Of a stretch of 64,000 bases of DNA, positions 18,378 through 28,874 are shown one piece after another; within the stretch, counting starts at the first letter, position 1; each line of letters opens with the position of its first letter. The notes beneath the pieces were generated by a model. The model ran no database searches, was not told the DNA's origin, and saw nothing but the letters and a program-made list of their open reading frames with translations. Origin of the DNA: an uncultured Gammaproteobacteria bacterium (lineage in GTDB: Bacteria > Patescibacteriota > Microgenomatia > UBA8517). The position numbers were made by a program, and so were the translations under genes. The stretch lies in assembly GCA_964635715.1 (NCBI GenBank), contig CAZWNZ010000001.1, forward strand, positions 248,122 through 312,121, in the 5' to 3' direction.

Positions 18378-19970
18378 TTGAGGGTTTGATCCTGGCTCAG
18401 GATTAACGCTGGCGGCATGCCTAATGCATGCAAGTAGAACGATCCTTGTGTTCTACACAAGGAATGTCACACAAATACTACCAATGAGTACCAATACTAC
18501 CAATTTCCAATGGAAACAAAAGAAGTTGGGAATTTGGCATTGGTATATATTTGGAATTTGGCATTTCTCGCGTAGGACGCGAGGGTAGTTGCGAACGGCT
18601 GAGTAATGGATAGGAATCTCCCTTTTGGCGCGGAATACCTCATCGAAAGATGAGCTAATACCACATAAGATCGCAAGATGAAAGCCCTTTACCGGGCACC
18701 GAAAGATGAGCCTATCTCCCATCAGCTTGTTGGTAGGGTAATTGCCTACCAAGGCTATGACGGGTAGGGGGCGTGAGAGCGCGTTCCCCCAGAATGGGAC
18801 TGAGACACGGCCCATACACCTACGGGTGGCAGCAACAGGGAATCGTACACAATGGACGAAAGTCTGATGTCGCAATGCCGCGTGGAGGATGAAGGCCTTC
18901 GGGTCGTAAACTCCTTTTACAGTAATAGAGATGTTATTGAGAATAAGCACCTGCTAACTCTGTGCCAGCAGCCGCGGTAATACAGAGGGTGCAAGCGTTA
19001 TCCGGATTTATTGGGCGTAAAGCGTTTCGTAGGTTTCTAGGTAAGTTATTCTTCAAAGACCACGGCTCAACCGGGGGAAGGGGAGTAATACTATCTGGAT
19101 TGAAATATGGTGGGGCTTCTGGAACTGATGGTGTAGTAGTGAAATACGTTGATATCATCAGGAACTCCGAGGGCGAAGGCAGGAAGCTAACCATTTTTTG
19201 ACACTGAGGAACGACAGCTAGGGGAGCGAAAGGGATTAGAGACCCCTGTAGTCCTAGCCGTAAACTTTGCTCGCTAGAGGTTTGCCCGTAAGGGTGAGCC
19301 TCGTAAGCTAACGCGTTAAGCGAGCCGCCTGGGGAGTACGGTCGCAAGACTAAAACTCAAAGGAATTGACGGGGACCCGCACAACCAGTGGAGCATGTGG
19401 TTTAATTCGAGACGAAACGAAAGACCTCACCCAGCCTTGACATGATACCGTTTAAGCACCTAGAAATAGGAGCTGATCTTAAGAAATTTTGATGGTACCA
19501 CAGGTGCTGCATGGCCGTCGTCAGCTCGTGCCGTAGGGTGTTCCCTTCAGTGGGGTAACGAGCGCAACCCTTGCCGCAAGTTGAATATTCTTGCGGGACT
19601 CCCTAAATTTATTTTAGGGGGAAGTGAGGACGACGTCAGGTCAGCATGGCCCTTATAGCTGGGGCAACACACATACTACAATGGAGCCGACAGAGGGTTG
19701 CCAAGTGGCAACATGGAGCTAATCCCATAAACGGCTTCTCAGTGGGGATTGGGGGCTGCAACTCGCCCCCATGAACTTGGAATTGGTAGTAATCGCGAAT
19801 CAGCATGTCGCGGTGAATACGTTCTCGGGTCTTGTACACACCGCCCGTCAAGTGAGTAAAGTTGTATATACCTTAAATCCCGTTGTACGGGATCAAGGTA
19901 GAGACAGCGATAAGCACTAAGTCGTAACAAGGTATCCGTACTGGAAGGTGCGGATGGATCACCTCCTTTC
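18378..19970 (+). rRNA. rrs: 16S rRNA with a ~120-nt insertion in the helix-6/V1 region
   Basis: 5' gtttgatcctggctcag, 515F-like gtgccagcagccgcggtaa, 3' ggatcacctccttt; about 1.59 kb. Confidence 0.95.
18458..18590 (+). other. intervening sequence / expansion element inside the 16S gene
   Basis: Extra ~120 nt between gcaagtagaacg and gcgaacggctgagtaatg; homologous to the two 23S insertions. Confidence 0.6.
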
Positions 19971-20294
19971 TAAGGAGATGACTTTCCCGCCAAATTGGCG
20001 GGACTGTTTCACCCCCATTTTAAGTTAAGGGTTTTTTGGTTAAAAAACTATAAACATAGCTTTCAATCACATTTGGAGTTCCAAATAAATTAATCTAAAT
20101 CTTTGGAGAGTCAACGAGAAATCCCGCTACAACGCGGGATTTTTTGTGTCCTTCGATTTCACTCAGTATCTTTGAGGAAAAATATAAAAATAGGAGAGTG
20201 AGGAGCTGGGATATTGAAGTGTAAGTTCTTTGGCGGGCTTTTTTGTTTGATTAATATCAAAAAGCCCGCCAAGAGCAATGAAACAAAAAGAGAT

Positions 20295-20963
20295 TTATTG
20301 TTTACGAATTTTTTTGATGATCCCCGTCGCAATAAGGCAGAGGCCAACAATGCCCAGTGCCGGGAAAGGCCAAGAAATCTGTCGATCGACACCCGTGACA
20401 GGTATCAGAGCGGCAGCCGCGGTTTCAGCCGGAGGATCATATGGTTCCGGAGTTTCGGACGGCTCAACCGTTGGTTCATCGGTTGGTTCGTCGGTGGGTT
20501 CTTCAGTAGGTTCCGGAGTGCCAGTAGGTTCCTGAGTTGGGTCCTCGGTAGGCTCATCGGTTGGTTCTTGTGTTGGTTCATCAGTTGGCACTTGTTGCTG
20601 AATTGCCTCCAAGTGGCTGATGTCTTTACAATCAGAACCGCTTCCAACTTTCGTCACTGTGACAGAGTTGGTTCCAAGACCACTCACAGAATAACAGCTG
20701 TTGCTTCCGGTGAGAGTGATGCACTCATTGCCACCAGTTGACATTTCTGACCCTGCCTTTACTATGACCGAATTGATCACAAAACCTGGGTCGGCATTAA
20801 TGGTAACAGACGTTCCACCCGAATCTTCTTTGATGTAACCATCCGAACTGGGGTTTAAACAATTACCCGCCCCTTGAGCACTTACTGACGTGGTATTGAG
20901 TAAACCCGCCGTGAGACATGTGATGGCCAAAACGGCCACAAACACGAACACTATCTTTTTCAT
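20295..20963 (-). CDS. secreted surface protein with a Pro/Thr/Glu-rich linker and a sortase-type C-terminal sorting signal
   Basis: Signal peptide; (PTDEPTQE)n linker; C-terminal LIPVTG, then a hydrophobic helix, then KKIRKQ. Confidence 0.55.
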   Translation of the reverse strand: MKKIVFVFVAVLAITCLTAGLLNTTSVSAQGAGNCLNPSSDGYIKEDSGGTSVTINADPGFVINSVIVKAGSEMSTGGNECITLTGSNSCYSVSGLGTNSVTVTKVGSGSDCKDISHLEAIQQQVPTDEPTQEPTDEPTEDPTQEPTGTPEPTEEPTDEPTDEPTVEPSETPEPYDPPAETAAAALIPVTGVDRQISWPFPALGIVGLCLIATGIIKKIRKQ

Positions 20964-21625
20964 AATCTCCTCCTTTGGGGGAACTAAAATAGGTTTGTCC
21001 TTTTTTAAATCTCTTTTGTTTTAAAAGGGCTAATTAACTAACAATAAATTAAATAAATCCGCTGTGGATTTATATATTTTCTGATTGGAATTATAGACTA
21101 AGAAGTCAAATTTTACAAAATTATGGGCTATTTATTCATATACATTTCTTATATCCCAAGAAGCAATCTATCATATATTCTTTGCTCGTCCAAAGAATGT
21201 AAATCCAATTTCTTGCTTCTCCAAGAAATTGGAGAAAGAAAGAGCCCCATGATACTTTTTAGGTAGTCACTCCATTCGTTCATACAATACAAAAGAACTT
21301 CTTCGGGACAAGCCCTCGTCAAACATCTTTTGTTTCTTGATATGTATTCACTCATTTCATTCGAATCTAAAAAGTAAATGGGATTTGGTGAACAAAAGTA
21401 AATTTTATAGGCGGAATTGGAATACAAATACAAAAATCTGAAGCTAAATTTATTATGCATTAATACATCGTTAAAGCATTCAAATTTTCTTTCGGAGAGA
21501 GTTTGTGATAATATCGTTGCCTAGTGGAGAATTCCAATAAATGCATTCGGCAATTCTCTTTAACATTATTAATAAAACGATTCCGATTAAATCAAATTAA
21601 ATCCATAAAACTTAAGGAGGAAGAA

Positions 21626-21886
21626 ATGGGAATATTCGATAAAGTTACTATTGCGGGAGGCTTATGCTCGACTGGGTTTTGGGGTTTAATACCCGGAACT
21701 ACACTTCTTTTTAAACGCGGTTACGGAGCTGCGCTCGCTGCGGCCGAAGTGACGGTCGTGGAAATACTGTATGAGGAAGAGAAGTGTAAGGTGAAGATCG
21801 ATCAAATCGTAAGCCAGGGAGCGGCAACCAATTACAAAATTGGAGACGTTTTGGTTGCAACCTCTGACGAGCTCACCGCGGTGTAA
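21626..21886 (+). CDS. hypothetical small protein
   Basis: AAGGAGGAAGAA RBS directly upstream of MGIFDK; 86 aa. Confidence 0.35.
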   Translation: MGIFDKVTIAGGLCSTGFWGLIPGTTLLFKRGYGAALAAAEVTVVEILYEEEKCKVKIDQIVSQGAATNYKIGDVLVATSDELTAV

Positions 21887-27170: not shown

Positions 27171-27213
27171 GGGCTTAAAGGTAACTAAGTAGGTTCGATT
27201 CCTACTAAGTCCG
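27171..27213 (+). ncRNA. tRNA-like minihelix (acceptor stem plus T arm only) with G3:U70
   Basis: gggctta-aaggtaactaa-gtagg-ttcgatt-cctac-taagtcc-g; no D or anticodon arm. Confidence 0.3.
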
Positions 27214-27706
27214 CATTAATTCTGTTAGCGCAGAATTCTAGAACGTTAAAATTTGAAGATTTAAGGTTTTTTTAAAATGTGTAGGTAAGTGATAGGGAAT
27301 TTTAGATGAAGAAGTTTTATATTTCTTTTATCTTTTACCCTTTATCTTTTACCTATTATTAGAAGAGGAAGGTCGCGTCCCAAACTCGAATTTATTCGAG
27401 TTGTGTGGGATCGCAAGTAAACAACGCAGACAGTGAATGCCTTGCTTTTCGTCTCCGAAGAAGGACGTACATAGCCACGAAAGTCGCCGGTTAGCTGCTA
27501 CGAAGCTTTGACCCGACGGTGTCCGAATGGGGAAACCCATCCCGCTTTGCGGGATATCTTGAGGCCAAAATGTTGACGCAAGTTAATATATAACTTTAAG
27601 TATGGAAACCACCTGAACTGAAACATCTAAGTAAGGTGAGGAATATAAATCAACGAGATTCCGCCAGTAGCGGCGAGCGAAAACGGAACAGTCTAAACCA
27701 TTGTGC

Positions 27707-27835
27707 ATAGCACAAGGAATGTCACACAAATAAATACCAATAAACCAATAAATACCAATTTACAATGGAAACATTTAGAATTGGGCATTGGTGCACATTG
27801 GTACTTATTTGAAATTTGGCGTTTCCTGCGCTGTG
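27707..27835 (+). other. 23S intervening sequence 1 (5' domain)
   Basis: The 22-nt block cacaaggaatgtcacacaaata is identical to the 16S insertion; shares taccaat repeats and ggaaac...gggcattggt. Confidence 0.6.
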
Positions 27836-28771
27836 CAGGATGGGGTTGTAGGACTCTAATGTGAGATCTCTATTTTAGTAGTAGAACAGTCTGGAATGGC
27901 TGATCAAAGAAAGTGAAAATCTTGTATACAAAACTAAAATAGGCTCTAGGAGTATCCTAAGTACCACGGAACACATATTCTGTGGGAATCCGGGGGAACC
28001 ATCCTCCAAGACTAAATAAGACGAAAGAGCGATAGTGAACAAGTACCGTGAGGGAAAGGTGAAAAGCTGAGTGAGACACTCAATGAAATAGAACCTGAAA
28101 CTGTTTGCGGTCAAACCGTGAGAGCTGGTCGTAAGACTGGTGATCGCGTGCCTATTGAAGAATGAGCCGGCGAGTTTTCAGTTACTTCTTATGTCTAACT
28201 CCAATTTGGAGGGAGGCGAAGGGAAACCAAGTGTGAATAGCGCGTTTGGAGTAACTGGAAGACCCGAAACTGGGTGAGCTAACCATGAGCAGGGTGAGCT
28301 CCGATGAAAATCGGAGGGAGGCCCGAACCCGTTGTCGTTGTAATGACATGGGATGACTTGTGGTTAGGGGCAATATACTTATCGAACCCAGAGATAGCTG
28401 GTTCTCCCCGAAAGGTCTATGGGGACCGTGGTCCGTCACGTTCTGCTGGTTGTAGAGCACTGGCTGGGTTGGAGAGCGCAAGCAATTCAATCTAATCAAA
28501 CTCCGAATACTAGTGTGAGCTATCGGACTAAAAAGCCGCATCGGGCTAAGCTGATGCGACGAAAGGGAAACAACCCTTGACTCTCAGTTAAGGCCTCTAA
28601 ATTACATCTAAGTTTGAAAGGAAGTTTTCTTTCTCAGACAGCCAGGAGGTTGGCTCAGAAGCAGCCACCCTTTAAAGATAGCGTAACAGCTCACTGGTCG
28701 ATTGAGAGGATGCGCCTAAGATTTATCGAGGATAAGATGTATGCCGAAGCTAGAGATATCCGTGCCTTGCA

Positions 28772-28874
28772 CAGGAATGATTAATAAATACCAATAAACC
28801 AATAAGTATCAATCTCCAATTAAAACTGGAATTGGGAATTTGGAATTGGATTATTTGTAATTTGTCATTCCCGT
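28772..28874 (+). other. 23S intervening sequence 2 (helix-45 site)
   Basis: Inserted between ccgtgccttg and agagcgcgggtgtggtaggggagcgttcc; aataaataccaataaaccaataa is identical to IVS 1. Confidence 0.6.

Follow-up and report, generated by a model that had tools for sequence, protein, structure and literature searches.

The closest described counterparts of the elements reported here are the intervening sequences (IVSs) of bacterial rRNA genes, which range from ~100 to a few hundred nt and occupy helix tips (H9, H25 and H45) in Salmonella, Yersinia, Campylobacter, Leptospira, Coxiella and the Rhizobiales. IVSs of ~70–130 nt are also found in helix 6 (V1) of the 16S rRNA of some Clostridia/Thermoanaerobacter and of Rhizobium, and we know of none that is homologous to insertions in the 23S rRNA of the same genome, nor of any description of a modular build and between-site spread for IVS-like insertions. 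The Rickettsia palindromic elements (RPE) and the MITE/REPIN-type repeats are hairpin-forming selfish repeats of ~100–150 nt that survive where the product tolerates an insertion, as in the surface loops of proteins and in RNA genes. In CPR bacteria, short rRNA gene insertions that lack ORFs and are not introns were reportedly noted by Brown et al. in 2015. The definition of IVSs, including their removal by RNase III without religation, has been set out elsewhere (PMC4990558). Most CPR rRNA insertions, taken generally and not as short elements in particular, were predicted to be introns, and so removed, from gene versus transcript comparison (PMC9297842, citing Brown et al. 2015). Tsurumaki et al. 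2024 (PMC11270868) describe short CPR insertions of <200 bp, without ORFs, not introns and recurring at sites that include 23IS2 and 23IS4, and suggest that they are IVSs of the RNase III type.

The DNA analysed here, a 64-kb stretch referred to below as the window, carries the sole rRNA operon of a bacterium from the Patescibacteria (Microgenomates/Woesebacteria-like). Its 16S (18374..19969; Rfam RF00177, 1348 bits) and 23S (27410..30580; RF02541, 2330 bits) genes both lie on the + strand, both match the full model, and between them hold three insertions on the same strand. Element 1 (145 nt, 18442..18586) takes the place of the 16S helix 6 tip (V1; E. coli ~70–99), and the Rfam SSU alignment places an insertion of 124 nt in the loop of this helix; element 2 (143 nt, 27699..27841) replaces a hairpin of 23S domain I (Rfam LSU model positions 274–295; E. 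coli ~275–290), where the LSU alignment places 130 inserted nt; and element 3 (134 nt, 28756..28889) stands in place of the 23S helix 45 tip (E. coli ~1158–1185), as located by E. coli mapping. The Rfam alignments and E. coli mapping thus identify all three as extra sequence at rRNA helix tips, found neither in E. coli nor in the family consensus. Borders were set against empty sites in relatives and are slightly wider than those first proposed.

The elements resemble known IVSs in having complementary ends that form a stem, in their sporadic presence among close relatives and in not being introns. Element 3 lies exactly at H45, and element 1 shares its 16S site with the helix-6 IVSs of Clostridia/Thermoanaerobacter and Rhizobium. 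They differ from IVSs in that one family serves both the 16S and the 23S rRNA of one genome, with a non-classic domain-I site besides; in that unlike centres stand under one conserved two-module end structure; in that excision is here putative; and in that the number of short insertions per 23S reaches 7 or more in related organisms. The insertions of Tsurumaki et al. belong to the same clade and are objects of the same kind, 23IS2 and 23IS4 being the equivalents of H25 and H45, but the accessible part of that paper (PMC11270868) mentions no sequence families, 16S/23S sharing, end modules or within-genome homogenisation for short insertions. Both the modular ends and the occurrence of one family in 16S and 23S alike are apparently novel.

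That the three segments form one family follows the original prediction, which had drawn on two exact repeats. The 22-mer CACAAGGAATGTCACACAAATA occurs exactly twice, in element 1 (18456–18477) and element 2 (27711–27732), as does the 23-mer AATAAATACCAATAAACCAATAA, in elements 2 (27729–27751) and 3 (28783–28805); no further match to either was found with up to 3 mismatches tolerated. Such sharing arose in none of 100 shuffles (0 expected). The elements align end to end with a mean column identity of 75%, pairwise identities being 75–83%, and the window holds no additional copy; all three lie inside rRNA. Convergence of low-complexity sequence by chance might be suspected from the AT-rich, repetitive centres, for which shuffled sequences already reach a mean identity of 0.58 by the semi-global measure, but it does not account for exact 22- and 23-mers. 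An assembly artefact fares no better: the copies are merely 75–83% identical and so do not represent a collapsed repeat, the same architecture recurs in independent ENA, JGI, NCBI and Logan assemblies, and two different samples (L122 and L123) gave identical sequences. Both explanations are effectively refuted.

Each element folds, as had been proposed, into a long imperfect hairpin of 49–54 bp, with energies of −50.6 to −61.7 kcal/mol (element 1: MFE −59.8 kcal/mol, 54 bp) and z-scores of −7.1 (element 3) to −9.5 (element 2) against dinucleotide shuffles. The build has three parts, an end module A, an AU-rich central hairpin of ~95–110 nt and an end module B. The consensus of module A is CTTGTNC-NNN-GN'ACAAG and that of module B is CTCGCNC-NNN-GN'GCGAG; A and B are inverted repeats of one another, each with an internal palindrome of its own, and in the transcript the whole forms a single imperfect hairpin of ~50 bp that rests on a 17-bp duplex of nearly two-fold symmetry. 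In element 1, module A (TCCTTGTG-TTCTA-CACAAGGA, 18443..18463) is a perfect 8-bp local palindrome that also pairs with module B (TCTCGCGT-AGG-ACGCGAGG, 18566..18584), and the centre (18464..18565) has three TACCAAT repeats on its left arm and ATTGG/ATTTGG on its right. Element 2 comprises module A (TTGTGC-ATA-GCACAA, 27701..27715), centre (27716..27823) and module B (TCCTGC-GCTGT-GCAGGA, 27824..27840), and element 3 comprises module A (TCCGTGC-CTT-GCACAGG, 28759..28775), centre (28776..28869) and module B (CCCGTGC-AGA-GCGCGGG, 28870..28886). All three centres belong, by alignment, to what we call the ACCAAT family, and their GC content of 0.26–0.34 compares with 0.48–0.50 for the rRNA (element 1 centre, 0.34 versus 0.50 for the remaining 16S; element 3 centre, 0.26).

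The end modules were analysed across 22 elements from 7 genomes. The local hairpins are paired at 93% (A) and 99% (B) of positions, nearly all Watson–Crick, and the variable position N (G, C or T) is mostly identical between the A and B modules of one element, as judged by eye from the table. The A and B loops can pair with each other at 48 of 51 positions, compared with 32.3 ± 3.6 after shuffling (0 of 5000 shuffles as high). Compensatory changes were found by RNAalifold at 9 of the 17 basal pairs, and MFE folding gives the long hairpin for 22/22 elements. Group I and group II introns were rejected, in agreement with the original prediction: the elements measure 134–145 nt, compared with at least ~200 nt for group I and ~600 nt for group II, and no intron or ribozyme covariance model matched at its gathering threshold, nor on the elements at E<=10.

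Three relatives (L127, L132 and L135), with 16S and 23S rRNAs 90–96% and ~85–92% identical to those of the window, have short plain hairpins (18–24 nt) at all three sites. Only an 18-nt hairpin tip is present at the 16S site in L132 and L135, the element 2 site is a hairpin of ~25 nt in all three relatives, and the H45 site is one of ~24 nt in these and in L142. The sister genome L122/L125 carries a different family (GGATAAGAGG...) common to its 16S and 23S genes at five sites, namely 16S helix 6, the domain-I site of element 2, H25, H45 and a position just 3' of the 23S gene, with centres 94–99% identical among themselves; H25 is empty in the window. On this comparison the elements are gained and lost at the DNA level among close relatives, and they are confirmed as true insertions, the alternative named at the outset being ordinary lineage-specific helices present in all relatives.

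These data bear on whether the hairpins stay uncleaved in the mature 16S and 23S rRNAs as lineage-specific surface extensions, which we consider unlikely. Every site is a helix tip on the ribosome surface, the occupied sites (h6, H25, H45, H54, H63 and H78) presumably coincide with the growth points of eukaryotic expansion segments, the folds have very high stability, and an uncut 16S avoids a 68-nt 5' fragment. Neither presence nor structure is conserved across the lineage, however, with L127, L132 and L135 lacking the elements and L125 carrying an unrelated family, and this presence/absence among organisms with 90–96% identical 16S, together with the complete difference of family between sister genomes at the same site, argues against a structural role. 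The GC content of the elements also falls far below that of the rRNA, long near-perfect double-stranded RNA is a natural RNase III substrate, and most CPR insertions are predicted to be removed from the transcript (PMC9297842, citing Brown et al. 2015).

Searching relatives for further copies, another check that had been proposed, located the ACCAAT family in further Patescibacteria, at some nine additional rRNA sites: ~Ec140-175 and H25 (L084), H25 (L142), Ec280, Ec1407 and Ec2144 (L154), H45 (L159), Ec274 and H45 (L141), and 16S ~Ec1006-1031 (L156). Family members of other organisms also occupy H25 and the H9/10 region, and Ec1407 and Ec2144 are occupied in L154 only. Sequence comparison supports the placing of one family at many rRNA helix tips, both across organisms and within one genome. 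Centres are far more alike within a genome (identity 0.79; 0.94–0.99 for the L125 copies) than between genomes (0.65), whereas ends are site-specific; at the same site, L084 and L141 (H45) and L142 and L159 (H25) have ends identical at 28/28 positions and unrelated centres. Ends and centres have separate histories: within one genome, centres are copied from site to site or homogenised.

The same figures could be read without any mobility, as old fixed-site insertions that gene conversion keeps uniform inside each genome (concerted evolution), and the similarity of 16S and 23S copies would then be uninformative on transposition. Both the within-genome likeness of centres and the pairs with identical ends fit such a history, which we nevertheless regard as possible but doubtful. 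L127, no more distant from the window than L125, has none of the insertions, so that whole elements would need to have been lost or gained repeatedly. The set of occupied sites also differs by genome (H25 in L125 and not in the window; Ec1407 and Ec2144 in L154 only), and the centre of element 2 is nearest to the L084 helix-25 copy (0.90) rather than to the window's own copies (0.81–0.83); on these results, sites are newly colonised and sequences pass between lineages.

The original prediction of a mobile mini-element has to be qualified: neither a transposase nor a target-site duplication was found in the window, nor any copy away from rRNA, and 'mobile' for this reason rests only on comparative distribution. 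One form of mobility would be a MITE- or REP-like transposon, its ~140-nt unit cut and pasted by a trans-acting transposase encoded elsewhere (e.g. a hairpin-recognising Y1/HUH enzyme). The size, the multiple copies at non-homologous sites, the terminal inverted repeats that extend into the loops (48/51 positions) and contain internal palindromes, and the related hairpins in intergenic gaps of other Patescibacteria contigs are all in its favour, as is another family of hairpins, which the window carries in frame inside radA and which recalls the RPEs. We still judge it improbable: the tip of the host hairpin is replaced and no direct repeat flanks the element, the A loop never matches the B loop exactly, the ~40 window ORFs scanned contain no transposase domain, the intergenic relatives lack the A/B ends, and ends and centres are decoupled. 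RPE and REPIN repeats differ further from the elements, which showed no RAYT or GTAG-type REP signature, are found in the window at rRNA helix tips only and carry dedicated end modules.

The reading that we prefer, at a probability of roughly two in three, is that these are hairpin elements of the IVS type, spread or homogenised among rRNA helix tips and probably cut from the pre-rRNA by RNase III. Each copy takes the place of a surface helix tip (16S h6, the domain-I hairpin or H45), and, most likely, the double-strand-specific RNase III would cut the hairpin out with no religation, leaving the 16S rRNA as pieces of ~68 and ~1383 nt and the 23S rRNA as pieces of ~289, ~914 and ~1691 nt that stay together in the ribosome. 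Excision and fragmentation are suggested by the hairpin anatomy, the H45 site, the AU-rich unconstrained centres and the CPR literature. Copying may proceed by gene conversion initiated at the similar end modules, or through an enzyme that recognises hairpins or palindromes; with ends and centres decoupled, which would not be expected of a simple cut-and-paste element, transposition fits no better than gene conversion or the exchange of cassettes among copies. Against this reading stand the location of elements 1 and 2 outside the classic H9/H25/H45 sites and the unusual small-subunit construction implied by a 68-nt 5' 16S fragment with helices 1–3. The window holds no RNase III gene, a result that covers these 64 kb only and is not evidence of absence.

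[quoted passage not shown] To our knowledge, a mechanism has so far been available among CPR rRNA insertions only for homing-endonuclease introns, and the 16S/23S sharing together with the decoupling of ends and centres would be the first known sequence-level handle on how the short insertions multiply. Insertions of this kind alter the length of V1 amplicons; they may also interrupt assemblies at rRNA genes, and classification based on rRNA can be misled by them.

A more speculative proposal, to which we give little credence at present, is a previously undescribed two-part system across the Patescibacteria, in which a conserved 17-bp end recognition module and an exchangeable AU-rich cassette make up selfish hairpins of tolerated sites that bring their own excision signal, with a possible link to IVP genes. 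The end module would consist of 7-bp half-sites around a 3-bp centre with near two-fold symmetry. Its outer half has G.U pairs and its inner half conserved A.C mismatches, whose positions we read as mirrored, and its fold could be a single duplex or a pair of local hairpins. The module might serve as the site of a dimeric enzyme, either RNase III on RNA or a homodimeric nuclease or recombinase on DNA, while the cassette would be copied between sites in the genome and be kin to the intergenic hairpins and to those in frame in protein genes. As a separate observation, IVP (PF05635) genes are framed by hairpin arms.

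The rRNA genes of the window were delimited with Rfam, all on the + strand, as a 16S gene at 18374-19969, a 23S gene at 27410-30580 and a 5S gene at 30722-30838. The 16S-23S spacer (19970-27409) is 7.4 kb long and contains tRNA-Ile (25147), tRNA-Ala (27065, 1.8 kb from tRNA-Ile) and protein genes on the opposite strand, including that of a conserved TraG/VirD4-like ATPase (21974-24109, opposite to the rRNA genes), which is syntenic in many Microgenomates and 75-95% conserved. The named relatives that best match this ATPase and RadA are 'Candidatus Woesebacteria', 'Microgenomates group' and 'Patescibacteria group', and the host is therefore a bacterium of the CPR (Patescibacteria). 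The exact window proteins are also found on a 482-kb NCBI contig and in Logan assemblies of the DNA sample SRR8925806. Between the 23S and the 5S lies a hairpin (30609-30707) with 33-nt arms built from GTACA repeats.

Three insertions within these genes form one family, here called the ACCAAT family, as the original prediction had proposed. They align over their full length with a mean column identity of 75%, and the 22-mer and 23-mer said to be shared between pairs of them each occur exactly twice, in the insertions where they had been reported (0 expected by chance in both cases). Boundaries were set by anchored regular expressions and by comparison of occupied with empty sites, giving 18442-18586 for element 1 (16S helix 6, h6), 27699-27841 for element 2 (a 23S domain-I hairpin) and 28756-28889 for element 3 (23S helix 45, H45). 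Alignment to the Rfam SSU and LSU models showed 124 inserted nt in the 16S helix 6 loop and 130 in a 23S hairpin at LSU 274-295. Pairwise alignment with E. coli (reference locus L169) places the elements at 16S ~70-99, 23S ~275-290 and 23S ~1158-1185, coordinates that are approximate only, since pairwise MAFFT splits large insertions untidily; the domain-I site of element 2 is what we take to be the helix 15/16 region. The GC content is 0.36-0.39 for whole elements and 0.26-0.34 for their centres, the AU-rich central hairpins, compared with 0.48-0.50 in the remaining rRNA. Each element folds into the expected long imperfect hairpin (49-54 bp, z = -7.1 to -9.5), and the view that they are not introns also held, with no match to any Rfam intron, ribozyme or other family even at E<=10 and only sub-threshold noise of miRNA-precursor-like hairpins at permissive E-values.

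That these segments are true insertions, and not ordinary helices found in all members of the lineage, was borne out by the syntenic rRNA loci of relatives, retrieved via the conserved ATPase and RadA, in which the same sites are plain short hairpins. Both 23S sites are plain hairpins of ~18-25 nt in L127 (16S 95.7% and 23S ~89-95% identical to the window), L132 (16S 92.5%) and L135 (16S 90.5%), and 16S h6 is a plain hairpin in L132 and L135, the L127 sequence being without the 16S 5' end. Comparison of occupied with empty sites shows that the element stands in place of the entire tip of the host hairpin, not within its loop, and revealed no direct repeat flanking the elements. The contigs of the closest relatives, L171 and L170 (TraG-like protein 95% and 87% identical), end before 16S V1, and the closest 23S (96%, in L121) was compared over its last 600 nt only. 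Relatives without the short elements bear large insertions of 333-1118 nt elsewhere in their rRNA genes: in L132 near position 1162 of the window 16S and near 23S positions 2219, 2888 and 2941, in L127 at 23S position 2889, and in the 3' part of the 16S in L129 and L170, where they contain LAGLIDADG ORFs. These large insertions are of the published intron/homing-endonuclease type.

Intervening sequences (IVSs) at H45 and at 23S helix 25 (H25) have been known since 1990. The elements described here agree with IVSs in four structural and distribution features, but in site only element 3, at H45, corresponds. Being within rRNA genes they would be transcribed in the rRNA, where they are able to form duplexes of ~50 bp. 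Excision by RNase III, the biochemical feature that defines an IVS, is how published IVSs are removed (PMC4990558), and by analogy we infer the same fate for these elements, because element 3 lies at H45, because the AU-rich centres look unconstrained and because presence or absence varies between close relatives. This inference also draws on Tsurumaki et al. 2024 (PMC11270868), who class short ORF-less CPR insertions at H25- and H45-equivalent sites as probable RNase III IVSs, and on a statement in PMC9297842 that most CPR rRNA insertions were predicted by Brown et al. 2015, from a comparison of genes with transcripts, to be introns, i.e. removed, which as reported there concerns insertions in general and not these short elements. 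Excision would yield 16S fragments of 68 and 1383 nt and 23S fragments of 289, 914 and 1691 nt. The main rival explanation is that the same hairpins are kept as expansion segments, which we consider unlikely beside RNase III excision.

The ends of the elements, modules A and B, were compared in a set of 22 elements from 7 genomes, with five centre families and at sites including h6, domain-I, H25, H45, Ec651, Ec1407, Ec1718 and Ec2144 (Ec denoting E. coli rRNA coordinates). The flank type is constant throughout, module A being CTTGTNC-NNN-GN'ACAAG and module B CTCGCNC-NNN-GN'GCGAG. Each is in itself a nearly perfect Watson-Crick palindrome, far above partner-shuffled controls (119 Watson-Crick pairs, 4 GU pairs and 9 mismatches in A; 126, 5 and 1 in B), and by inspection the variable position N mostly has the same base (G, C or T) in both modules of one element. 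The two modules are at the same time mutually inverted repeats, in which the 5' strand of A pairs, conserved G.U pairs included, with the 3' strand of B, and the loops of A and B pair at 48/51 positions, against 32.3 +/- 3.6 after shuffling (0/5000 reach 48). RNAalifold identified compensatory changes in 9/17 basal pairs, and the inner half, where the 3' strand of A faces the 5' strand of B, contains two conserved A.C mismatches. The minimum free energy (MFE) fold is a single long hairpin in 22/22 elements which, taken with the pairing of A and B, means that the base of every element is a 17-bp duplex of near two-fold sequence symmetry. Local A and B hairpins were rejected as the equilibrium fold despite their near-perfect Watson-Crick pairing, the energy penalty being +4 to +17 kcal/mol in 22/22 elements. 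The symmetry of the 17-bp duplex is, speculatively, what a dimeric enzyme would read, be it RNase III acting on RNA or a homodimeric nuclease or recombinase acting on DNA. An origin of A and B by direct target-site duplication of a host hairpin is ruled out because their loops are reverse-complementary and identical in no element. A search of the pre-16S and pre-23S processing stems for the A/B motif gave a weak similarity (TCGCG/CGCGA) confined to the 23S stem. A second end type of short rRNA insertions, CCCGCACCAAWTT...AAWTTGGTGCGGG, is seen in L154, L084 and L142, at H25, Ec1702 and the domain-I site, and the 23S of L154 carries at least seven short insertions.

The ACCAAT family extends to other organisms. 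A first pattern, TATTTGNAATTTGNCRTTYC, proved too degenerate in a scan of genome contigs, where it hit 118 loci with L084 as the only true relative. A specific gapped pattern, which fits all three copies in the window and the two in L084, gave no further match in the window or in the loci retrieved before the metagenome scan, and matched 30 metagenome contigs; the viral contigs scanned with it gave none, nor did phages and plasmids searched with element 2 by blastn. Family members lie in the 23S of L084 (~Ec140-175 and H25), L142 (H25), L154 (Ec280, Ec1407 and Ec2144) and L159 (H45), near the 23S 3' end in L143/L150, in the 16S of L156 (~Ec1006-1031) and, as a variant, at Ec274 and H45 in L141. 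The 23S of these hosts is merely ~68-86% identical to that of the window, that of L084 clearly belonging with them as Patescibacteria-like and rich in insertions, despite its record label of 'uncultured Gammaproteobacteria'. The centre of element 2 has an identity of 0.90 to the L084 H25 copy and 0.81-0.83 to the window's own copies, to be read against a shuffled background (mean 0.58, maximum 0.74) because low complexity inflates the identity of AT-rich centres. Around 15 further pattern matches are hairpins of the same CCAAT/CAAAT-ATTTG/ATTGG grammar, most of which (about nine, including L140, L147, L148, L153, L157 and L165) occupy short inter-ORF gaps exactly; these intergenic hairpins are without modules A and B. 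That of L157 lies on a 608-kb contig beside a protein whose relatives are from Patescibacteria, Levybacteria and Saccharimonadales. Four more matches, within ORFs, are plain chance. Just upstream of the radA start in the window (35497-35526; also L121 2796-2825) are three tandem ATTGGTAYTT units, complementary to the TACCAAT motif in the arms of the rRNA elements, with the opposite arm absent. They are 23/24 identical to part of the L084 H25 copy and may represent either half of an element or an array that binds a protein.

A parallel is provided by a sister genome (L122/L125, 16S 95.8% identical to the window), for which independent assemblies of two samples give the same 23S sequence. It has insertions at five places (16S h6, the domain-I site, H25, H45 and directly 3' of the 23S), all of one family (GGATAAGAGGATAAAAAGATTAGAGTGATGAATC...) unrelated to the ACCAAT family, so that the sharing of a single family by the 16S and 23S of one genome is a pattern that recurs, no accident of the window. 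The fifth copy, with A/B-like ends, is borne by a small hairpin directly 3' of the 23S (L122 8113-8222), and spacers are thus colonised too. The centres in this genome are 94-99% identical (four copies compared), and where centres and ends were set side by side in L125, the centres reach 0.96-0.99 and the ends 0.54-0.81. Across pairs of elements at different sites within one genome, the centres have a mean identity of 0.79 vs 0.65, well above background, and the ends (0.63) are no more alike than in other pairs. Conversely, the pairs L084-H45/L141-H45 and L142-H25/L159-H25 have ends 28/28 identical and centres at background level. The simplest reading is one of two processes, in which whole elements would pass between lineages at the same site via homologous recombination in conserved flanking rRNA, and gene conversion or template switching, primed by the similarity of the end modules, would copy centres from one site to another in the same genome. 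An enzyme dedicated to their spread could still be at work; a Pfam scan of ~40 window ORFs found no gene for one. Short insertions of IVS-like kind are already published for CPR rRNA genes, and in the literature on IVSs and CPR rRNA insertions that we surveyed we found no description of a family common to the 16S and 23S of one genome, of a single family at ~ten helix tips across lineages, of conserved symmetric end modules or of a decoupling of ends from centres.

Several other repeats occur in the window. Within radA (35533-36971) lies an in-frame hairpin repeat of ~126 nt (35871-35996), composed of AGTTRGTCRR, a periodic motif of ~10 nt, and the complement of this motif, and RadA has a 35-aa insertion just past the Walker-A region that is absent in a 76%-identical relative; this resembles the palindromic elements in Rickettsia protein genes. 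More copies or arms of the AGTTRGTC hairpin family are found at 39310-39400, 43611-43690, 43765-43800 and 44139-44220. Two such arms flank a free-standing 23S_rRNA_IVP gene (43804-44142; PF05635, E 3e-23), an arrangement that resembles an IVS carrying its classic cargo but is not located in an rRNA gene. The IVP gene is likewise framed by inverted repeats in L121 and L122, in a different place or orientation. A perfect 77-nt tandem repeat at 51457-51635 (two full copies and the 25-nt start of a third) adjoins tRNA-Ala(CGC) (51617-51688, - strand). Its unit has the tRNA gene's 3' end at the beginning, and the repeat looks like the scar of an element integrating at a tRNA att site. Finally, a giant ORF of 3189 aa (53717-63286), with many internal repeats of ~300 nt (61-83% identical) and short repeats of threonine/alanine type, probably encodes a surface protein.
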